From a virus (taxonomy: Duplodnaviria; Heunggongvirae; Uroviricota; Caudoviricetes), in the IMG/VR virus record IMGVR_UViG_3300033068_001655: 35,481 nt of DNA. One strand, given 5' to 3'. Below the pieces are notes generated by a model, which was not told the origin of the DNA, did no database searches, and worked only from the letters and a program-made list of their open reading frames with translations. This document shows positions 1,019 through 30,802 of the stretch, one piece after another. The position numbers were made by a program, and so were the translations under genes. The first letter of the stretch is position 1. Each line of letters opens with the position of its first letter.

Positions 1019-1474
1019 TTATTTACGACAATATGTTTCAGTTTGACTATGGCAATTCGGACACAAAATTCTAAGATTTAATAACCTATTATCCATATTA
1101 TTACCATTTATATGATCTAAGTGCATTACAATTGGTTTACTATTCCAATCAGTTAGTTCACATATTTCACATTTGTTCTCTTTTAATTTTGCAGAGAATA
1201 ATTTTTCTTTTAATCTACCATTATTTGTGTAGGTAGAATTTTCTATTAAAATTTCCTCAAGAGAACAAGTCTTACCAAAATTTCTATATCTGGTTCCACT
1301 ATTCCATCCTTGTCCTGTAAAGTGTGAGGTGTCAATTTCTAATAATTTAAAATACTTTTTTAGTGTTTTATAATTACCACCAACTGGTCTCATTTCTAAT
1401 TTTCTACAGACTTCTGCAACGGATAGTGATTCTTTTACTATCGGTTCTAATGTTTCTTTATTATACTTACTCAT
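1019..1474 (-). CDS. HNH homing endonuclease inside the Leu/Arg tRNA operon
   Basis: CEIC...HLDHINGNNMDNRLLNLRILCPNCH motif. Confidence 0.88.
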   Translation of the reverse strand: MSKYNKETLEPIVKESLSVAEVCRKLEMRPVGGNYKTLKKYFKLLEIDTSHFTGQGWNSGTRYRNFGKTCSLEEILIENSTYTNNGRLKEKLFSAKLKENKCEICELTDWNSKPIVMHLDHINGNNMDNRLLNLRILCPNCHSQTETYCRK

Positions 1475-8350: not shown

Positions 8351-8677
8351 TTATCGTTTTATCATTGAATAGTATAAATTATTCGGCATATCAATATTAA
8401 AAAATGTTATTAGTGTATATTCTGTATATCTTTTATTTGCTCTATGTTCAAAAACAAATATTTTTTTATCATATATTCTTATAAAAGGACTCTGACAACC
8501 ATTTTTAATAGTATTCTGAATTACTCTTTTAACTTTATTTCGTAAATTACTACGAACATTTTCTTTGGTTTTACCTTTTAAAATAGAATTATTACATAAT
8601 ATGTATAATTCGTCAGAACTAACATGTAATCTTTTATACCCTTGTTGTATAGCGTGTTCAGTTAAAGTAATTTTCAT
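8351..8677 (-). CDS. Hypothetical protein
   Basis: Coupled to the NAMPT stop; begins ITLTEHAIQ. Confidence 0.6.
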   Translation of the reverse strand: MKITLTEHAIQQGYKRLHVSSDELYILCNNSILKGKTKENVRSNLRNKVKRVIQNTIKNGCQSPFIRIYDKKIFVFEHRANKRYTEYTLITFFNIDMPNNLYYSMIKR

Positions 8678-10266
8678 TATGCCACTAATTCCTCATATTC
8701 TTCTTCTAGAACCGTAGCTCTTTGACGAATTTCTTCAAATGTCCAATCAACTAAAAGTTCTCCCATTCTGAAAACTTCAACTAATTCATCTTTTACAGTA
8801 TCAAAGTCTGGATCAGATGATGTAACAGTTCTGTATGAACCATCTTCATTTTTAACTAATTTAAGTTTACCTTTTTTAGATTTCTTAAATGAACGTGTAA
8901 TGTTTCCATCAGCATCCATTTCAGTTGGAGATTTTACCACATCAGTATCTTTACCATCTACAACAGCAAAACAAGCTTTAGTTGCAAAGTTATTTGTATC
9001 ACGGTTTATATCGGCTTGTAAAAGTTTACCACCCATACCCAATGCTAAGTTCTCTGGTGAAATCTTCTCAGCTTTTAACATCGCATAGATTTCTCTAATT
9101 GAGTCTAAGTTTACACCGTCACCTTGAATTACACGAACTTGTGGAGGAAGTACTTTATAACCTTTCTCATTTACAGTATAACCAAATTTATCAAAAAGAA
9201 TATCGAAAATCTCTTTCAAGGTTCTTAAAACGTGACCAGAGTCAGGTCTAATAACTAATTGGTTACCTGGTTCAGCAGGTCTTGATAAAATCAAATCTCT
9301 TAACTCTCCACCCCAATAATCTTTACAAGCTCTAAAAATGTTAAATGAGTCAGATACACAAGCAACTAATCCGGTTGGGAATGTTTTAAGTACTCGTTTC
9401 ATCAATTCTAACTCTCCTTCTTCACCTTTAAGTGTCATAATAGAGTGTTCAGTCGCAGGTATTGATAAACCATAAATGGTATCAGTATTATATATGTCTC
9501 TAACTAATTTAGAAGCGATTACAGTGTCAGAACCTTTGAAGTTGACTAAATGTGCAGACCCACCAATTTTAGCTGATTGTACAGAAGATACACCTCTAAA
9601 TCCAAAGTCATTTAAAACAAAGTCAACTAAGAAATTGATTGTTTTATTATCATATGATGTACAATCTAAAAATGAGTCAGTAACGATTTTTCTTACTTCT
9701 CTTGAAAGTGTAGCAACGGTAATAGGATACCAAACTTGTAGTAAAATACTTTCTAAGAAGTTTGTTAGCCATGCACAATTTTCATCTAAACTTTCGATTG
9801 TGAAAAGTACATTTTTTACATCAACAACAGTTCCTTCTGGAACGGCTTTAATACTAATAGGTAGTTTACCATCATATTTATCAACGATGTAGTCAAACTT
9901 AGAACGATCAAATACATCGTCTCTTCCGAAAACTCCGTATTTAGTACCTAAATAGTCATAAGCTTCATCTACTTCTTCTTTTGTAATAGCAATACCTTCT
10001 AAGTATTGTTTAAGAACAATTTGTAAACCGTAGAATAAAGTTTTTTCAAATTTACCACCACGTGATTCCATATAAGAAATCATTTTGGTCATTTCTGTAC
10101 CATAAAATCGGTGATGTGAGTATTTGTATGCGTCAGAACAAAGAATTAAATTGTCTGGCTTAGTAATAATTTTTGTAAGGTATTTCTCCATACCTTCTAT
10201 TGCAGACCAGTCTCGGTTAGCAATTGCTTTTTGAAGCTTTCTTGTAATTGTTCTTTGTAAGCTCAT
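8677..10266 (-). CDS. nadV: Nicotinamide phosphoribosyltransferase
   Basis: SDAYKYSH, LNDFGFRG, IPATEHS, VSDSFN, VIRPDSG, VIQGDG and GMGGKLLQ motifs. Confidence 0.96.
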   Translation of the reverse strand: MSLQRTITRKLQKAIANRDWSAIEGMEKYLTKIITKPDNLILCSDAYKYSHHRFYGTEMTKMISYMESRGGKFEKTLFYGLQIVLKQYLEGIAITKEEVDEAYDYLGTKYGVFGRDDVFDRSKFDYIVDKYDGKLPISIKAVPEGTVVDVKNVLFTIESLDENCAWLTNFLESILLQVWYPITVATLSREVRKIVTDSFLDCTSYDNKTINFLVDFVLNDFGFRGVSSVQSAKIGGSAHLVNFKGSDTVIASKLVRDIYNTDTIYGLSIPATEHSIMTLKGEEGELELMKRVLKTFPTGLVACVSDSFNIFRACKDYWGGELRDLILSRPAEPGNQLVIRPDSGHVLRTLKEIFDILFDKFGYTVNEKGYKVLPPQVRVIQGDGVNLDSIREIYAMLKAEKISPENLALGMGGKLLQADINRDTNNFATKACFAVVDGKDTDVVKSPTEMDADGNITRSFKKSKKGKLKLVKNEDGSYRTVTSSDPDFDTVKDELVEVFRMGELLVDWTFEEIRQRATVLEEEYEELVA

Positions 10267-10272
10267 AATATA

Positions 10273-11466
10273 TTATTTTACTTTTATTCCTAACTCAATG
10301 TTTTCTTGCACAAAGTTAGTGATTTTTTCTATGTTATCTTTACTTTTGAATAGAATATTTGCACCATGTTTATCTAAATAAACCGCCATTATTCCGTCAA
10401 ATTCTTTCATATGTGTAACAGTATTTATTCCACACTCTAACGAACCACATTGGAATGGACGTTGTTCAGTTACAGGGATTTGACTACCTTCTCTTAATGG
10501 ATTATGTGTATGAATAATACAATCATAATCAGGGTTTTGTTGAAGTATCAACCATTGACTTCTTGCTCCTACAGAAGCTTTTCTTTTACCTTTAACAGTG
10601 AATTTATCTTCTTCAACTTCAACAACAGACATTCCTTCTGTGAAAACTAAATTATGATTAGCTTTTCTTTGTGAAGATAAAAATGACTTATCATCTATTT
10701 TATAACAAAAGTGTCCAGGTGTAAAACCATTACCATTGTTTTCAAGAAAGCCATTATTATCAATTAAGAATTGAATTACTTTTTGAAAAGTATCTGGTGT
10801 TGTTTTAATACTTGTAGACTCTGTATCAACAAAGTTTGATCTATTGTAAGTCAAATCATTTCTCAATAAAGTTATATCAACAAGTTCCTGTAAAGCTTTT
10901 TCACGATCAGTAGTTTCACCATAGATAGTTTCTTCTGGAGTGATAACCATATTATTTCTTGTTACAGTATCATTAGCTAAAACTAAATTACATTTTGTAT
11001 TTTTCATCATTTGAAGAGCAATTAAGAATTGTTCATCACTTGACTTGTTAGTAGTTGTTTTGAAACCAATAAGAAAGATGTCAGGACGTTTTTGACGAAT
11101 CTTAGCAATTACTTTATTAGTTGGTGTGAGTTCTAACGAGAAGTTACCATTAGCAGTTTTTAATCTTTCGGAATGAAACCCATTTTCGATACCGTCAATA
11201 GGTAGAGATTTGAAATCACAGAAAGCAACATTAAGAATGATTGTTCCTACGTTTTGATCTTCAAGTAATTGGTCAATATAGTTTTCTACATCTGAATTAC
11301 TTTTCAGATTAGAATCTCGGTCGGCCATTTTTGTTAAAACTAATTCAGAATTAGGGATTAGTTTGTGTAGTTTGATTGCAGTGTTACCAAAAGCTGGTGC
11401 ACTTAATGCGAAATGGTTTCTAACAGGTTCAAATGTTCCACCACCTAAAATTACTACTCGTTTCAT
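10273..11466 (-). CDS. CoaB-like (DFP) domain fused to class II aldolase-like domain
   Basis: N-term VVILGGGTFEPVR...FLIGFKTT...CNLVLAND; C-term GHFCYK...CIIHTHNP...FQCGSLE...LDKHG. Confidence 0.7.
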   Translation of the reverse strand: MKRVVILGGGTFEPVRNHFALSAPAFGNTAIKLHKLIPNSELVLTKMADRDSNLKSNSDVENYIDQLLEDQNVGTIILNVAFCDFKSLPIDGIENGFHSERLKTANGNFSLELTPTNKVIAKIRQKRPDIFLIGFKTTTNKSSDEQFLIALQMMKNTKCNLVLANDTVTRNNMVITPEETIYGETTDREKALQELVDITLLRNDLTYNRSNFVDTESTSIKTTPDTFQKVIQFLIDNNGFLENNGNGFTPGHFCYKIDDKSFLSSQRKANHNLVFTEGMSVVEVEEDKFTVKGKRKASVGARSQWLILQQNPDYDCIIHTHNPLREGSQIPVTEQRPFQCGSLECGINTVTHMKEFDGIMAVYLDKHGANILFKSKDNIEKITNFVQENIELGIKVK

Positions 11467-11836: not shown

Positions 11837-12288
11837 AAGTATTTTGTTATATCTTCTAAATTTTTAGGACATTCAGTATCGTGATACCACCATACTGCTT
11901 TTGTTTGTAGTCCTTTATAACACTCCATATGGAGCATTGTCATTGGTTTTCCTTTATCTTTTTTTAATACCGTTTTTACTCTACCTATTTCTTGTCCGGC
12001 TTTTACAGTTCTACCTGGTTTTATCTTAGTTAAGACTTCACCGTATAAAAATGTTTTTTGTATTTCTGGATGATAAATCATTACTGCTTGAGTATCGTTC
12101 CACCAAGGAGATTCACTAAATCCAGTGAACTCTATTACACTTGTAACTACACCGTCATACATTGAATAAACTTCTTCATTTTCTTGACAGAATAGATCAA
12201 CTCCAGTATGGTGGTCGTGTTTACGTTTAGCTCCAAAATAATTTTCAGAGTCTAAACTTGGTAAAGTATAATTACTAATTGGCCACAT
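11833..12288 (-). CDS. M23 family peptidase
   Basis: HTGVDL (HxxxD) and MLHME (HxE/HxH-like) motifs. Confidence 0.8.
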   Translation of the reverse strand: MWPISNYTLPSLDSENYFGAKRKHDHHTGVDLFCQENEEVYSMYDGVVTSVIEFTGFSESPWWNDTQAVMIYHPEIQKTFLYGEVLTKIKPGRTVKAGQEIGRVKTVLKKDKGKPMTMLHMECYKGLQTKAVWWYHDTECPKNLEDITKYL

Positions 12289-13289
12289 TATTCTGCGGTA
12301 TAAGTTACGTTAGTTCTTTCTTCTAATCTTTCACCAATTGGCATAAGATTGTTTGAATAAACTTTATCGATAAATGTTTTCATTAAATCTCTGTGTTCAG
12401 GAACTATTCCAGTTCTAATACCATCATAATTACTAAATTTTTGTGCAGGCACCCATTTAACCTCAGCAATATCATCAGATGCTTTTGCAAAGCCGTGGTG
12501 TCTTTCTGCTAAGAATAATGTAGTCATAATTCCAGAGTCTTCACCTTTATATCTCCAATCGTTTACTTTTTGAGAAGTAATATAAGTTAAGTTTCTGTTT
12601 ACTACTAAGTTACCACCAGTTTCTTCATTAAGTTCTCTTAATGCAGCGGCTTCAAAAGAAGAGTCAGAAGTATCAACGAAACCACCGACAAATCTAAATA
12701 ATTTCTCGTTAGGTTTTCTACCTAAAAGGATATTACCTTCACCATCGTGAGCAACAATGTCAACAGTAGGGAAAGTTGTAGGTCTATGGTTAAAAGAAGA
12801 ATAAATAACACCCGCTCTAAAATCATCAGAGTCTAAGGTTTCTTTGGCAACTTCTTCACGGATATTTGTACCGTTATAAGTAACACTTTCTTCTAATTCA
12901 ATAACTGAGTATTTACCAGAGTAGTAAGGAATAAAAGAGTCTCTACTTCCATAGATTACAGTTTTTTTCTCACCGAATGGAATAGGAATAATAGTGTCAA
13001 CATCTTGTGACCATTTTTCGTTATATCTTTGATCTTGAATAGGTAAGATCATAACAGAAGGGAATTCTTTTTGAATCATTGCTTTACGAGAAGCAAAATC
13101 TAGTGGATTTTTACGAGTGTTTTGAACTCTTGATACACCTAAAAGTATGATTACTTTTTTATGATTATCTAATACATAATTGATTAGTGAACGGTGACCA
13201 TCGTGTAGTTTGTTTACTTGGAAGCGACCAATAACAACTGCCACCTCTGCTTCTTTTTGAATTTCTAATTCATTTACTTTTATATTCAT
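12288..13289 (-). CDS. nadM: Bifunctional NMN adenylyltransferase / ADP-ribose pyrophosphatase (NadM-Nudix)
   Basis: IGRFQ...HDGH nucleotidyltransferase motif, NPLDF, and Nudix box GGFVD...AAALRELNEETG. Confidence 0.93.
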   Translation of the reverse strand: MNIKVNELEIQKEAEVAVVIGRFQVNKLHDGHRSLINYVLDNHKKVIILLGVSRVQNTRKNPLDFASRKAMIQKEFPSVMILPIQDQRYNEKWSQDVDTIIPIPFGEKKTVIYGSRDSFIPYYSGKYSVIELEESVTYNGTNIREEVAKETLDSDDFRAGVIYSSFNHRPTTFPTVDIVAHDGEGNILLGRKPNEKLFRFVGGFVDTSDSSFEAAALRELNEETGGNLVVNRNLTYITSQKVNDWRYKGEDSGIMTTLFLAERHHGFAKASDDIAEVKWVPAQKFSNYDGIRTGIVPEHRDLMKTFIDKVYSNNLMPIGERLEERTNVTYTAE

Positions 13290-26898: not shown

Positions 26899-27666
26899 TT
26901 ATATTAAATCTAAATCTATACCGTGAGTGTCCCACCACCATTCTTTAGGTTTATCCTTATGTTTATCTTTTAATCTTTCCCATTTCACTAAAATTCTTTC
27001 TTGTCTTTGGACTTCATCATAGTAAAATTGGTGTTCAATAACTATATTATCTTTATGACATAATCTTAGTAATTTTCTTAAAAGATAACCTTGTCTATTA
27101 TTACCTGGTACAAACCCACTTTCAATTATCTTTTCAACGGTTTCTATTAAAGTATCTTTCTTTGACTTACTAGTTTTATTTAAAACCATTTCTAATCGTT
27201 CTAAACCAAAACCAACGTCAATACAAGTACCTAATGGATTCACAATGTTTCCAATTTCAATACCGTCTTTGTAAAACTCAGTACAATAACCTCCTATATC
27301 ACCATCAGACCAAATACATTCTTCATCAAATCTAACTTCTATATCTGTATAAAAATCAGACCATTCAGGTTTATCTGGGTGTATAGTAACATAATCAGGT
27401 GTAATACCTATTATTTTTAAAAATTCTAACCAATAATTTATTGTTTGTGAAACAGTCCATTCTCTGAATGAGAAGAACCCTATCATATTGAAATAAAGTA
27501 AATGTGAACCATCCCCTATTTCGTCTATATCATTTAATCTTAAACAAGATTGTATATTTGATATAGTTCCTTTGTAGTTTAAGTCTTTAAATTTAGACTT
27601 GAATTGTTGCATTCCTGCTGGACAAAATAATGTAGTTTCGTCATAAGACCTAACATTATCATCCAT
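26899..27666 (-). CDS. alaS: Minimal alanyl-tRNA synthetase (aminoacylation domain only; true start uncertain)
   Basis: TTLFCPAGMQQFK, QSCLR...DEIGDGSHLLYFNMIGFFSF, IDVGFGLERL and GNNRQGYLLRKLLR; no editing (HxxxH) or C-Ala domain. Confidence 0.88.
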   Translation of the reverse strand: MDDNVRSYDETTLFCPAGMQQFKSKFKDLNYKGTISNIQSCLRLNDIDEIGDGSHLLYFNMIGFFSFREWTVSQTINYWLEFLKIIGITPDYVTIHPDKPEWSDFYTDIEVRFDEECIWSDGDIGGYCTEFYKDGIEIGNIVNPLGTCIDVGFGLERLEMVLNKTSKSKKDTLIETVEKIIESGFVPGNNRQGYLLRKLLRLCHKDNIVIEHQFYYDEVQRQERILVKWERLKDKHKDKPKEWWWDTHGIDLDLI

Positions 27667-27763: not shown

Positions 27764-28537
27764 TTATTTTTTAAAATTATCAATTCTTTCCAATAGTTCC
27801 TCTAATGTTATAGAGGATTTTTTGTTTTTAGATACATTTTCATTATGTATCATTAGTTTACAGTTTGCAGGATGTGATAAAATTTTTGGATCAATACCTA
27901 ACTCAAACCCTTCTTTTACTGATAACATATGATCCCTACTTACACCACCTAAATTATTATTTTTATTTGAAGGTGAATACCAACCATATTTCTCTATAAG
28001 TGAAAAATCAAACTTATCTGGATAATCTGCTAAATTAAACTTGAAGTTCGCTTCTGCTTTATAGATTTTGAAAGCATCCATATCTTTCCTATTGTAATCT
28101 TTTTTACAATTATTGGAACAAAATTTAACCTTTCTTTTATTTGTAAATTTATTATTACACCCCTTACAAATTAAATCATTTAAACCAATTTTACCTTCTT
28201 CCTTTATATTATTATCAATAAGATACTTGTAAATACCCTTTCTTATATTATCACTACGTAATGAGTAATCTTTTTCAGAATTTGTAAATTTTGCAACACA
28301 CGAATGATTACAGTATTTATTACTTCTTTTTGAGAAAGGTATTATTTCACCACATTTACATATTTTAGGTGATTTAAGATACTCTATTTCTTTCAAATTA
28401 CTTTTTTCTTTTATTGTATCTGAGTATTTATCATAGTTTCTTAAATACTTATTTACATAAATGTTTCTACAGGAAAGAGAACAGTAAATTTTTTTACGTT
28501 CCGTTTCATTTTCACACTCTATATTTTTACATTTCAT
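27764..28537 (-). CDS. Zn-finger repeat HNH endonuclease
   Basis: Repeated YCSxxC/FCSxxC; C-terminal SRDHMLSV...HPANCKLMIHNENVSK. Confidence 0.8.
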   Translation of the reverse strand: MKCKNIECENETERKKIYCSLSCRNIYVNKYLRNYDKYSDTIKEKSNLKEIEYLKSPKICKCGEIIPFSKRSNKYCNHSCVAKFTNSEKDYSLRSDNIRKGIYKYLIDNNIKEEGKIGLNDLICKGCNNKFTNKRKVKFCSNNCKKDYNRKDMDAFKIYKAEANFKFNLADYPDKFDFSLIEKYGWYSPSNKNNNLGGVSRDHMLSVKEGFELGIDPKILSHPANCKLMIHNENVSKNKKSSITLEELLERIDNFKK

Positions 28538-28598: not shown

Positions 28599-28673
28599 TG
28601 GACACAGGGGGAGTCGAACCCACTCATGAAACCTTCCTTGCAAAGGAAGTAGTCTGCCGTTGACTTCTGGCCC
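28599..28673 (-). tRNA. tRNA-Ala(UGC), imperfect acceptor/T stems
   Basis: CTTCC-TTTGCAA-GGAAG arm; G3:U70, A73. Confidence 0.8.
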
Positions 28674-28683
28674 ATTTTTTTTG

Positions 28684-28757
28684 TGGAAAATACCGGGATC
28701 GAACCGGTGACCTCTTATCTGCCAGACAAGCGCTCTAACCATCTGAGCTAATTCCCC
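28684..28757 (-). tRNA. tRNA-Ala(GGC)
   Basis: CTTGT-CTGGCAG-ATAAG arm; G3:U70. Confidence 0.93.
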
Positions 28758-28837
28758 ATTATAATTAAAGTGGTGTATAAAAATTTACATCTAACGTCTT
28801 AGATATAGAGATTTCTATAACTTAAACCACTTATCTG

Positions 28838-28909
28838 AGCGAAAAACGGGGGTTGAACCCGCGACCCCCACCTTGGCAAGGTGGTGCTCTACCACTGAGC
28901 TATTTTCGC
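28838..28909 (-). tRNA. tRNA-Gly(GCC)
   Basis: CCACC-TTGCCAA-GGTGG arm; U73. Confidence 0.96.
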
Positions 28910-28956
28910 CTATTGGAGCCGGACCCTGGGACTAACAGGGAGTCCTCCGGCATGTG

Positions 28957-29029
28957 TGCAGGAGAAGGGAGTCGAACCCTCGTCTGAGCATTGGAAGTGC
29001 CCTATATTTAGCCGTTATACGACTCCTGC
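28957..29029 (-). tRNA. tRNA-Gly(UCC)
   Basis: GGGCA-CTTCCAA-TGCTC arm; A73. Confidence 0.92.
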
Positions 29030-29038
29030 AATTTATTG

Positions 29039-29126
29039 AGCGAGTGACAGGATTCGAACCTGCGACGTGAACCTCATCTGACTGATTTGGAAGACCAGTG
29101 CCATCGACCAACTAGGCGACACTCGC
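29039..29126 (-). tRNA. tRNA-Gly(UCC) with 18-nt variable region
   Basis: CTGGT-CTTCCAA-ATCAG arm; T arm identical to tRNA-Thr at 12-93. Confidence 0.87.
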
Positions 29127-29135
29127 ATATTTTTG

Positions 29136-29216
29136 TAGGCAAGATGGGATTCGAACCCACGTTTTCAAGTTACCGCTACAGGTATAGAATGTATAAGATT
29201 CCACTGCTACTTGCCT
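29136..29216 (-). tRNA. Rearranged tRNA-like RNA, anticodon UAU (Ile-AUA), 81 nt
   Basis: AGGCAAG/CTTGCCT acceptor, GGAAT-CTTATAC-ATTCT arm, D-loop-like AGCGGTA 3' of it, intact T arm. Confidence 0.68.
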
Positions 29217-29222
29217 ATGTTG

Positions 29223-29297
29223 TAGTCTATACGGGATTCGAACCCGTGTCTTACCCGTGAAAGGGGCACGTCCTAGACCTGACTAGACGAATAGACC
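29223..29297 (-). tRNA. tRNA-Glu(UUC)
   Basis: TGCCC-CTTTCAC-GGGTA arm. Confidence 0.93.
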
Positions 29298-29305
29298 ATT
29301 TTTTG

Positions 29306-29379
29306 TACTCTTGACGGGAATCGAACCCGCATTTACATCAGCTTGAGAAGCTGGAGTCCTACCGTTAGACGACAAGAGC
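29306..29379 (-). tRNA. tRNA-Glu(CUC)
   Basis: CAGC-TTCTCAA-GCTG arm. Confidence 0.9.
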
Positions 29380-29388
29380 ATTTTTTTG

Positions 29389-29456
29389 TGGGATGCGAGA
29401 GACTCGAACTCTCCTGCTAGGGTTTTACAGACCCGGCTATCACCATAATCCATCCC
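29389..29456 (-). tRNA. Compact atypical tRNA-Tyr(GUA), 68 nt
   Basis: GGGT-CTGTAAA-ACCC arm, miniature D arm TAT-GGTG-ATA, short variable loop. Confidence 0.65.
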
Positions 29457-29467
29457 GATTATATTTG

Positions 29468-29540
29468 TAGTGTATGTCGGATTCGAACCGACGTCCTCCG
29501 CTTTGAAAAAGCGTAATCCTTACCGCTAGACGAATACACC
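29468..29540 (-). tRNA. tRNA-Glu(UUC)
   Basis: CGCT-TTTTCAA-AGCG arm. Confidence 0.9.
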
Positions 29541-29548
29541 GTATTTTG

Positions 29549-29630
29549 TGGGCAGAGAGGGATTCGAACCCCCGAACTCGAAGAGAACAGATTTACAGTC
29601 TGCCAGCTTTAACCACTTGCATATCTACCC
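29549..29630 (-). tRNA. tRNA-Tyr(GUA)
   Basis: GCAGA-CTGTAAA-TCTGT arm, class II. Confidence 0.95.
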
Positions 29631-29640
29631 ATTATATTTG

Positions 29641-29712
29641 TACTAGTGACGGGACTCGAACCCGCATCTCCCGGTTTGAAAAACCAGTTTCCTGCCATTA
29701 GAAGACACTAGC
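29641..29712 (-). tRNA. tRNA-Glu(UUC)
   Basis: CTGGT-TTTTCAA-ACCGG arm. Confidence 0.88.
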
Positions 29713-29732: not shown

Positions 29733-29771
29733 AAAAAAAACCCAATCTGATTTTTAAGTCAGATTGGGTTT
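29733..29771 (-). terminator. Intrinsic terminator/attenuator of the Glu/Tyr/Ile/Gly/Ala operon
   Basis: AAACCCAATCTGA-CTTAAAAA-TCAGATTGGGTTT plus U run; ends 20 nt before tRNA-Glu. Confidence 0.88.
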
Positions 29772-30099: not shown

Positions 30100-30113
30100 A
30101 TATATTTTCTTAG

Positions 30114-30184
30114 TAGCGTACTGTGGATTCGAACCACCCCGTAGACCTTATGAGAGTCCCATGCAACCTTTACACTTTAACGCG
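30114..30184 (-). tRNA. Second initiator-like tRNA-Met(CAU), degenerate acceptor
   Basis: C1:U72; GGACT-CTCATAA-GGTCT arm; mismatches at 6:67 and 7:66. Confidence 0.72.
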
Positions 30185-30229
30185 ATATGTGTTTTATAGT
30201 TGTATATATTAAAAAGTTTATCTCTCTTT

Positions 30230-30802
30230 TCAATTTTTTTCAACTTTTTTCATTATTTTTTTAATTTCTTCTTTAGATTTCTCTAAATCAACATTTTCTA
30301 TTACAAAATCTGCTAATTTAGCTTTATCTTCATCAGACCATTGACTTCTTATTCTTTTAAGAACTTCTTCCTTAGTAGTGTTATCTCTACTAATAACTCT
30401 TTCAACTCTTACATCTTCTGGTGCAGTAACTAAAATTGTATAATCACAATCTTTATAAGCACCACTTTCAAATAAAATTGCCGCTTCTTTAACTACAATG
30501 TCATATTGTTTTGACCAGTTGATAAAGTGTTGTCTTACTTTTGGATGAATAATCTCGTTTAACTTTTTAAGATTACTCTCATTTCCGAATACAAAAGTAG
30601 CTAACTTTTTTCTATCTACCAAATTATTTTCGATAATTTCTTCACCAAAAGTTATTCTTAATTCATTTACTACTTTTGGTGTATCAAGTAATTTCTTAGC
30701 TTCATCATCAGCAATATAAATAGGATAACCCAAAGATTCAATATACTTTGTGATTGTTGTCTTACCAGACCCAATACCACCAGTTATACCTACTATTTTC
30801 AT
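30230..30802 (-). CDS. coaE: Dephospho-CoA kinase
   Basis: VGITGGIGSGKTT, IADDEAK, VDRKKLA, IIHPKV, EAAILFE and ADFVIEN motifs. Confidence 0.95.
   Translation of the reverse strand: MKIVGITGGIGSGKTTITKYIESLGYPIYIADDEAKKLLDTPKVVNELRITFGEEIIENNLVDRKKLATFVFGNESNLKKLNEIIHPKVRQHFINWSKQYDIVVKEAAILFESGAYKDCDYTILVTAPEDVRVERVISRDNTTKEEVLKRIRSQWSDEDKAKLADFVIENVDLEKSKEEIKKIMKKVEKN

Follow-up and report, generated by a model that had tools for sequence, protein, structure and literature searches.

A rewired tRNA-Ile(UAU) gene of a huge phage and its probable role in AUA decoding

Can an RNA in which the segments of a tRNA follow one another in an order other than that of the cloverleaf still be a tRNA, and what would it then decode? 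This question is raised by an 81-nt gene on a viral DNA stretch of 35,481 nucleotides (IMG/VR record IMGVR_UViG_3300033068_001655; Caudoviricetes). This stretch, called the window below, comes from a jumbo or huge phage and has a GC content of 28.7%; the DNA sequences closest to it are those of uncultured phages of 630–735 kb. Two genes of the kind considered here lie on its minus strand, namely R2, a rewired tRNA-Ile(UAU) at 29136–29216, and R1, a rewired tRNA-Arg(UCU) at 933–1013. R2 had been described in an initial annotation as a rearranged tRNA, and the layout given there matches the minus strand exactly. It will be argued that R2 is almost certainly a selected, L-shaped tRNA-like RNA, that it is a tRNA with an undescribed core topology and that it is probably a functional decoder, which would be charged by an isoleucyl-tRNA synthetase (IleRS) and would read the AUA codons abundant in this phage.

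The helices of R2 are free of mismatches and comprise a 7-bp acceptor stem, a 5-bp T stem with a UUCRANY loop and a 5-bp anticodon stem with a 7-nt loop, in which both U33 and a purine at position 37 are present. The hairpin between positions 9 and 26 that defines the D arm of a cloverleaf is absent. Two D-like strands, a and b, form a helix that encloses the anticodon hairpin, a single U separating strand a (GCAG) from this hairpin. CCA is not encoded and the 3′ trailer reads C-AAAAA, as in the neighbouring tRNAs. In R1 the enclosing helix is GUCC/GGGU, likewise closed by a G:U pair, and is followed by UGAAAAU. The compensatory differences from the GCAG/CUGU of R2 and the conservation of UGAAAAY ahead of the T stem, both noted in the initial annotation, agree with the two sequences.

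Tools designed for cloverleaves have difficulties with such an RNA. Default ARAGORN makes no call at R2, and the Rfam tRNA model (RF00005) reaches 32.8 bits (threshold 29) by way of a D-arm deletion and a 22-nt insertion. A first covariance model, built from R2 alone with the proposed fold, recovered R1 together with units of the same layout in related IMG/VR contigs. Screening IMG/VR for the 3′ signature TGAAAAYGTRGGTTCGA gave matches on at least 119 contigs; among 115 extracted signature units, which are those left unplaced by a strict first-pass descriptor, 113 are uncalled by default ARAGORN and most are visibly of the same layout. With a second-generation model the family comprises at least 126 members (123 distinct) from about 80 viral loci, scoring 44–92 bits; the family figures given here refer to these listed members. 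Conserved homologs, whose absence was to count against the initial annotation, are thus present. R2 ranks 9 of 126 with 87.1 bits and R1 reaches 79.1 bits, versus at most 33 bits for any canonical tRNA of the window.

Evidence for the fold comes from covariation among the 123 distinct members. Standard pairs occupy 93.9% of the cells, against 40–47% when the 3′ partners are slid by 1–3 columns, and the covariation score is 0.893 compared with 0.09–0.19 for the slid versions; none of 500 shuffles reaches the observed values. Family-wide, the acceptor, T and anticodon stems are 96–97% paired, the acceptor pairs (97.3%) covary at all 7 positions, and U33 is found in 123/123. In the enclosing helix, two pairs are formed in 122/123 and 120/123 members, with 22 and 58 double changes, respectively, the innermost pair being standard in 85/123 and the outermost in 66/123. 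It must be kept in mind that the alignment was fitted to the proposed structure and hence leans towards it. Two checks are independent of this bias. In a mutual-information scan over all column pairs, with average product correction, the top 17 are exclusively proposed pairs. The other check concerns the fold of canonical order that ARAGORN proposes for R2 at a relaxed threshold, a tRNA-Ile(tat) with a D stem of 3 nominal base pairs, a mismatched anticodon stem and C33; projected on the family alignment, its D stem is 33% paired and its anticodon stem 40–68%, and this fold was rejected. The compensatory changes in the enclosing stem and the failure of the canonical order both uphold the description of R2 as rearranged. 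A MAFFT alignment of R1 and R2, in which the helices are out of register, was not used.

Covariation extends beyond the helices. The purine located 2 nt past strand b, in the motif U-A-R..GG, covaries perfectly with the pyrimidine just 5′ of the T stem, and this predicted contact behaves like the Levitt pair (R15:Y48) of canonical tRNAs. The 15:48 pair was outside the covariance model. On the model alignment it is standard in 123/123 members (AU 86, GC 34, GU 2, UG 1), and in a model-free, anchor-based parse it is G:C or A:U in 75/75, which 0 of 10000 shuffles match. Both states are seen within every anticodon class with at least two parsed members, and the mutual-information scan has the pair at rank 13. 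In addition, U8 and A9 are invariant, A14 is found in 122/123 and G19 in 120/123, and U54-U55-C56 of the T loop are, like U33, near-invariant. The 15:48 pair and the conserved U8, A9, A14, G19 and U54-U55-C56 together indicate a normal L-shaped core; as predicted from these nucleotides, the contacts that build the L shape (U8/A14, R15:Y48, and G18-G19 with the T loop) are kept in the family. The next covariation after the helices links columns 10 and 74, i.e. the outermost 5′ nucleotide of the D-like helix and a nucleotide of the tail (G with C; C, A or U with U). Columns 16 and 49, the nucleotide before the anticodon stem and one in the 3′ linker, are C:G, G:U or A:U in 74/123. These two column pairs may correspond to the 13:22:46 triple and the 26:44 pair or may reflect lineage effects.

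How the two strands would fit into such a core can be proposed by comparison with canonical numbering. Strand a would take the spatial place of nucleotides 22–25, because it passes straight into the anticodon stem, and strand b would take that of 10–13 and continue into A14-R15..G18-G19. In terms of gene order, segment 10–21 (the 5′ strand of the D stem with the D loop) would be swapped with segment 22–43 (the 3′ strand of the D stem with the anticodon arm), so that the D-like helix would form around the anticodon hairpin and stack on it. Three backbone junctions would be altered, from 9 to 22, from 43 to 10 through the linker and from 21 to 48 through the tail; the residues at these junctions are neighbours in the canonical structure. 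The D-loop-like GG stretch would reach the T loop, and the UGAAAA-Y tail would lead into the T stem. The equivalence of the strands to 22–25 and 10–13 is a geometric reading of the sequence.

The family is almost restricted to two amino acid specificities, as its anticodons show: UCU (42 members), GAU (24), UAU (23), UCG (23), ACG (6) and CCU (3), with GCG, CAU, CUU and UCA represented by a single case each, so that nearly all members are of Arg or Ile type. Most of these anticodons are one mutation apart. Three odd members, with UCA (L080, 440–527; it would read UGA, and there is an insertion in the tail), CAU (L026, 6052–6128; Met or lysidine-type Ile) and CUU (L048, 11003–11080; Lys), suggest switching of the anticodon within the rewired scaffold. 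Only 7 of the 126 members are called by default ARAGORN.

The family is also essentially phage-specific. About 596 Gb of bacterial and archaeal genomes contain 121 matches to the signature, 6 of which are family-like, all six on contigs of metagenome-assembled genomes, and the other 115 are chance matches; on viral contigs, about 100 of the 119 signature matches are family members, among the matches listed. Arg-type genes are present in the cultured Pseudomonas phages PA11, TC6 and vB_PaeM_Ty, where they are unannotated or lie under features named ‘homing endonuclease’ or ‘hypothetical protein’. The rewired gene homologous to R1 is covered, in several records of Pseudomonas phages, by a ‘homing endonuclease’ or ‘HNH endonuclease’ annotation, and in the window an open reading frame (ORF) with an HNH-like motif and no Pfam match (1019–1474, minus strand) lies immediately upstream of R1. 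Among deposited phage records, the Ile type is found in LR756502.1 only, an uncultured 642-kb phage. When three members of the Ile type were compared by blastn with 50,697 deposited phage records, this record alone was returned, and the search thus revealed no cultured carrier of the Ile type; short divergent RNAs can escape blastn. An exact search of IMG/VR with 25 nt from the central part of R2 gave no match, and a search for related loci by way of the CoaE gene found none.

Does the amino acid identity of these RNAs follow their anticodon? The bacterial IleRS determinants are A73, C4-G69, U20, A35, U36 and A37, and those of bacterial ArgRS are A20, C35 and U/G36 (PMC9976931, Table 1). R2 has all six IleRS elements. 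In the anchor-based parse, position 20, the nucleotide after GG, is A in 38/38 members of the Arg type and U in 31/37 of the Ile type, and the discriminator is A in 37/37 of the Ile type and variable in the Arg type; A20 in the one type and A73 with U20 in the other match the published ArgRS and IleRS determinants. R2 also shows kinship with canonical tRNAs of the same specificity. Its acceptor stem (GGCAAG/CUUGCC) and T stem are common to a canonical tRNA-Ile(UAU) at the syntenic slot of a related contig, L003, and its anticodon arm matches the canonical tRNA-Ile(UAU) of another, L002. The initial annotation had called the UAU anticodon rare. This holds for bacteria (PMC3575796) and not for these phages, since relatives carry canonical tRNA-Ile(UAU).

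R2 belongs to a tRNA operon that is preceded by a short leader ORF and an intrinsic terminator. The earlier count of ATA at six of the seven Ile codons of the leader is correct. Leader codons 9–21 (IAIEAIGGYEAGY) are each cognate to some tRNA of the downstream operon, the ATA codons being cognate to R2 only, and a run of 13 residues drawn from the five amino acids concerned has a chance of about 9e-8 per position. The leader is conserved in L003 (8540–8700, terminator included), where all six ATA codons are retained and 3 of the 5 nucleotide differences are silent, but the slot of R2 is occupied there by the canonical tRNA-Ile(UAU), which implies that both architectures are interchangeable in that circuit. 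Two further loci have comparable units. In L118 (6347–6549), a promoter-like site, a leader with IGIAIIGGGAGAY and a terminator stand directly ahead of a rewired Ile(UAU) gene, followed by Ala(UGC) and Gly(UCC), and in L037 (5669–5803) a leader with ISIIGNGAIAGGG and a terminator precede a rewired Ile(UAU) gene followed by Gly, Gly and Ala. In the three operons of the window, L118 and L037, the Ile codons of the upstream leader are mostly ATA, and no tRNA of the operon other than the rewired one is cognate to these ATA codons. More generally, the leader codons of the window, L003, L118 and L037 mirror the downstream tRNAs (Ile-ATA, Ala, Glu, Gly and Tyr). The R2 operon would be under leader-plus-terminator control, in which the leader ATA codons would sense exactly R2; an antiterminator pairing was not identified in the leader and terminator units of the four loci.

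Codon usage and tRNA repertoires point in the same direction. ATA accounts for 40% of the Ile codons and AGA for 79% of the Arg codons in the window ORFs, and these are the codons matching the anticodons of R2 and R1. In L120, 19 canonical tRNAs cover 16 amino acids and Ile is provided by rewired genes only, and in L052, L086 and L058 the missing Arg is supplied by rewired genes only. The two architectures can also occur side by side: one array of LR756502.1 (L127) contains tRNA-Ile(UAU) in both forms, canonical and rewired (320–393 and 1500–1579). Its rewired gene sits between Gly(GCC) and Ala, a place taken in the window by a 79-nt AT-rich spacer (28758–28836), and R2 itself occupies a slot that is canonical in L003 and L127.

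Table 1. Features of R2, its sibling R1 and the R2 operon in the window
Feature	Position	Strand	Remarks
R2, whole rewired tRNA-Ile(UAU) gene, 81 nt	29136–29216	−
R2 acceptor 5′ strand, AGGCAAG (RNA positions 1–7)	29210–29216	−	pairs with 29137–29143
R2 U8-A9	29208–29209	−	invariant, 123/123 family members
R2 strand a of D-like helix, GCAG	29204–29207	−	runs straight into anticodon stem
R2 anticodon hairpin, GGAAU-CUUAUAC-AUUCU	29186–29202	−	UAU anticodon at 29193–29195; U33 and A37 present
R2 4-nt linker AUAC, anticodon stem to strand b	29182–29185	−	putative counterpart of 44–45
R2 strand b of D-like helix, CUGU	29178–29181	−	pairs with GCAG: G:U, C-G, A-U, G-C
R2 D-loop-like stretch, AGCGGUAA	29170–29177	−	read as A14, G15, G18-G19, U20 and A21 equivalents
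R2 tail, CUUGAAAAC: conserved UGAAAA motif and pyrimidine at 29161	29161–29169	−	pyrimidine covaries with R15 (Levitt 15:48)
R2 T arm, GUGGG-UUCGAAU-CCCAU	29144–29160	−	canonical T loop
R2 acceptor 3′ strand CUUGCCU and discriminator A73	29136–29143	−	A73 is 29136
R1, sibling rewired tRNA-Arg(UCU)	933–1013	−	wiring as R2; 79.1 bits with family model
tRNA operon: Glu, Tyr, Glu, Tyr-like, Glu, Glu, R2, Gly, Gly, Gly, Ala, Ala-like	28599–29712	−	downstream of leader
Leader ORF (‘leader 3’), 33 codons	29798–29899	−	6/7 Ile codons ATA
Intrinsic terminator, 13-bp stem and U-run	29738–29771	−	between leader and first tRNA of R2 operon

From the identity nucleotides, the tertiary features of the core, the operon and leader context and the complementarity of the arrays, we infer aminoacylation and ribosomal decoding by R2, which on these grounds is probably a functional, IleRS-charged tRNA-Ile(UAU) reading AUA. 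Several points weigh against the fold or against this function. The minimum free energy fold of R2 is not the rewired one (−17.3 kcal/mol for the latter versus −20.2), and single-sequence folding fails to return the rewired fold for R1 as well; since nearest-neighbour energies ignore tertiary contacts, folding thermodynamics were not counted as evidence for or against. The outer helix has only 3–4 bp, its outermost and innermost pairs being non-standard in 57/123 and 38/123 members. With regard to the E. coli IleRS determinants, R2 has C38 and not A38, A29-U41 and not C29-G41, C16 and not G16, and its putative 12:23 position is G:C and not U12-A23, all four being minor or species-specific determinants. 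A UAU tRNA is a poor substrate of E. coli IleRS, and without modification the UAU anticodon misreads AUG on ribosomes of E. coli (PMC3575796); the function of R2 would consequently depend on the IleRS of the host or phage and on modification of U34. Four sequencing runs (metatranscriptomes among those found) yield contig fragments only, mostly from neighbouring tRNAs or relatives, with R2 barely touched, which says nothing for or against its transcription. Control of the operon by a leader attenuator is itself put forward as a hypothesis. Finally, canonical and rewired genes with the same anticodon do coexist (UAU in 2/23 loci, UCU in 10/42), so that the rewired copy may have another role, e.g. 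that of a decoy or of a backup resistant to nucleases.

A decoy had been offered by the initial annotation as the alternative to an AUA decoder. Such an RNA, tRNA-shaped and unused in translation, would soak up a host nuclease that targets tRNAs, or another tRNA-binding factor, and so shield the genuine tRNAs. Coexistence within LR756502.1, in the 10/42 UCU loci and in the window itself, where a canonical Arg(UCU) at 1745–1817 accompanies R1, fits this idea, as does the limitation of the family to few anticodon classes; colicin D-type nucleases target tRNA-Arg. A decoy, however, needs no synthetase identity nucleotides outside the anticodon loop, and A20 in the Arg type and A73 and U20 in the Ile type track the anticodon; moreover, in many arrays the rewired gene is the sole tRNA for its amino acid or anticodon, and the leader ATA codons are matched by the rewired gene only. 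Decoding is thus the favoured half of the initial proposal, given the tertiary core, the Ile identity and the role of R2 as sole cognate of the leader ATA codons, and a decoy is unlikely. It is hardly easier to believe that the wiring is an adaptation by which a functional tRNA evades host enzymes that recognize or cut canonical tRNAs, or the phage's own degradation of host tRNAs, aminoacyl-tRNA synthetase, EF-Tu and ribosome still accepting the altered core. The near restriction to phages (about 100/119 viral versus 6/121 cellular signature matches, among the matches listed), the occasional coexistence with canonical isoacceptors and the retention of outer shape and tertiary pairs despite a different connectivity would all be expected, but no linked nuclease or defence gene was seen in the data examined and the facts also fit a neutral alternative fold, one that arose once and spread by anticodon switching; adaptive evasion is rated as rather unlikely.

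Two other explanations would deny R2 any decoding function. According to one, R2 is a decaying pseudogene, a tRNA-Ile gene broken by internal rearrangement and free of selection, as the weak Rfam score, the missing ARAGORN call and the occurrence of degenerate copies in phage tRNA arrays might indicate. This is scarcely credible and effectively refuted: the 123 distinct homologs, on about 80 viral contigs, show compensatory changes in all helices and perfect tertiary covariation, and R2 itself is without mismatch in its helices. According to the other, R2 is a regulatory tRNA mimic and no decoder, similar to a Y RNA, e.g. a partner of a phage Ro60 protein or a sensor RNA. This is very improbable, because Rfam finds a tRNA only and no YrlA, the 20 window ORFs contain no TROVE/Ro60 domain, the anticodon arm of R2 is complete, with a canonical loop of 7 nt, and the family anticodons fall into coherent classes with matching identity nucleotides. 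A functional AUA decoder is, therefore, the reading retained for R2. A more ambitious combination, namely that the family consists of translation-competent tRNAs with a non-cloverleaf core, that the wiring is kept because it confers resistance or invisibility to tRNA-targeting immunity or phage-induced tRNA destruction and that R2 is sensed by an AUA leader attenuator, is tentative and, taken as a whole, doubtful.

If such RNAs are widespread and selected, the L shape can be reached by another strand order, which would bear on tRNA evolution and on the design of orthogonal tRNAs. The tRNA repertoires of phages would then be systematically under-counted, with only 7/126 members called and some hidden under ‘homing endonuclease’ or ‘hypothetical protein’ features. 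The question of why phages carry their own AUA and AGA decoders would gain a concrete, testable object of 81 nt. Within the family, the Ile members display a switch of amino acid identity in one unusual scaffold, and R2 is linked to a codon-matched leader.

The window has two minus-strand tRNA arrays and encodes NAMPT, CoaE, a DFP-like protein, NUDIX, methylase and helicase proteins. The ORFs for cofactor metabolism, all on the minus strand, are 8677–10266 (NAMPT) and 12288–13289 (NUDIX/cytidylyltransferase-like), both for NAD salvage, and 10273–11466 (DFP-like) and 30230–30802 (dephospho-CoA kinase), both for the CoA pathway. A 255-aa ORF at 26899–27666 (minus strand) matches the catalytic core of class II alanyl-tRNA synthetases (74 bits with Pfam tRNA-synt_2c, over profile positions 27–203 of 552). 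About 930 bases, with one ORF (27764–28537), separate it from the tRNA operon upstream, which ends in two tRNA-Ala genes, and its product may be a truncated phage AlaRS-like protein. Among the canonical tRNAs, tRNA-Thr(UGU) (11–93, 83 nt) and tRNA-Gly(UCC) (29038–29126, 89 nt), both on the minus strand and otherwise class-I, have variable regions of 12 and 18 nt without an obvious stem, and their acceptor and T arms are near-identical, as if one body had been re-used. Two minus-strand units appear at the relaxed ARAGORN threshold only: a 72-nt Tyr(GUA)-like unit at 29387–29458, devoid of the long variable arm expected in bacterial tRNA-Tyr, and a weak second CAU unit at 30113–30186.

R2 can be compared with several RNAs that deviate from the cloverleaf or imitate it. 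Like the YrlA-type Y RNAs (RF02553), which are bound by Ro60/Rsr, it has an acceptor and T-arm module and lies in phage tRNA islands. These Y RNAs lack a decoding anticodon arm and accompany a Ro60 gene, whereas R2 has a full anticodon arm, no YrlA match and no Ro60 gene in the window, and is therefore not a YrlA mimic. Circularly permuted tRNA genes of the red alga Cyanidioschyzon merolae (Soma et al. 2007) reportedly place the 3′ half first and restore a canonical tRNA through a circular intermediate. The segment order of R2 likewise differs from that of the cloverleaf, but R2 is not circularly permuted: both of its termini are normal, the exchange of segments is internal, and the conserved pairings already suit the primary transcript. 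Conversion into a canonical tRNA by splicing or permutation was rejected in view of the same termini and pairings. Like the D-armless mitochondrial tRNAs, e.g. metazoan mitochondrial tRNA-Ser (PMC7609411, PMC9427863), R2 has no hairpin at the D-arm position and is difficult for tRNA finders. In these mitochondrial tRNAs the D arm and its tertiary contacts are lost and the molecule is more flexible (reviewed in PMC7609411; structure in PMC9427863). R2 is not of that type, since it has kept a covarying D-like helix, a GG equivalent of the D loop, U8/A14 and 15:48.

Full-text literature searches, with subscription journals outside their coverage, found no description of such a rewired core. Phages are absent from a 2020 review of non-canonical natural tRNAs, and according to a 2024 paper every known bacterial tRNA is a cloverleaf. 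The closest functional relatives of R2 are the canonical tRNA-Ile(UAU) of Mycoplasma mobile and of phages, with which it has in common a UAU anticodon set in a C32-U33-...-A37 loop and presumably the same lysidine-free reading of AUA. They differ in architecture, the D arm lying between position 9 and the anticodon arm in the canonical molecules, whereas in R2 the D-like strands flank the anticodon hairpin, the D-loop-like stretch is 3′ of this hairpin and the UGAAAA-Y tail replaces the canonical 5-nt variable loop. The closest structural relatives are the rewired phage tRNA-Arg of R1, PA11, TC6 and vB_PaeM_Ty, which share the wiring and the UGAAAA-Y motif, R1 and R2 fitting one covariance model at 79–87 bits. 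With respect to this Arg type, R2 has UAU in place of UCU, UCG or ACG, and U20 and A73 in place of A20 and a variable discriminator, and the Ile type, unlike the Arg type, mostly has a 1-nt/4-nt internal loop and G15:C48.
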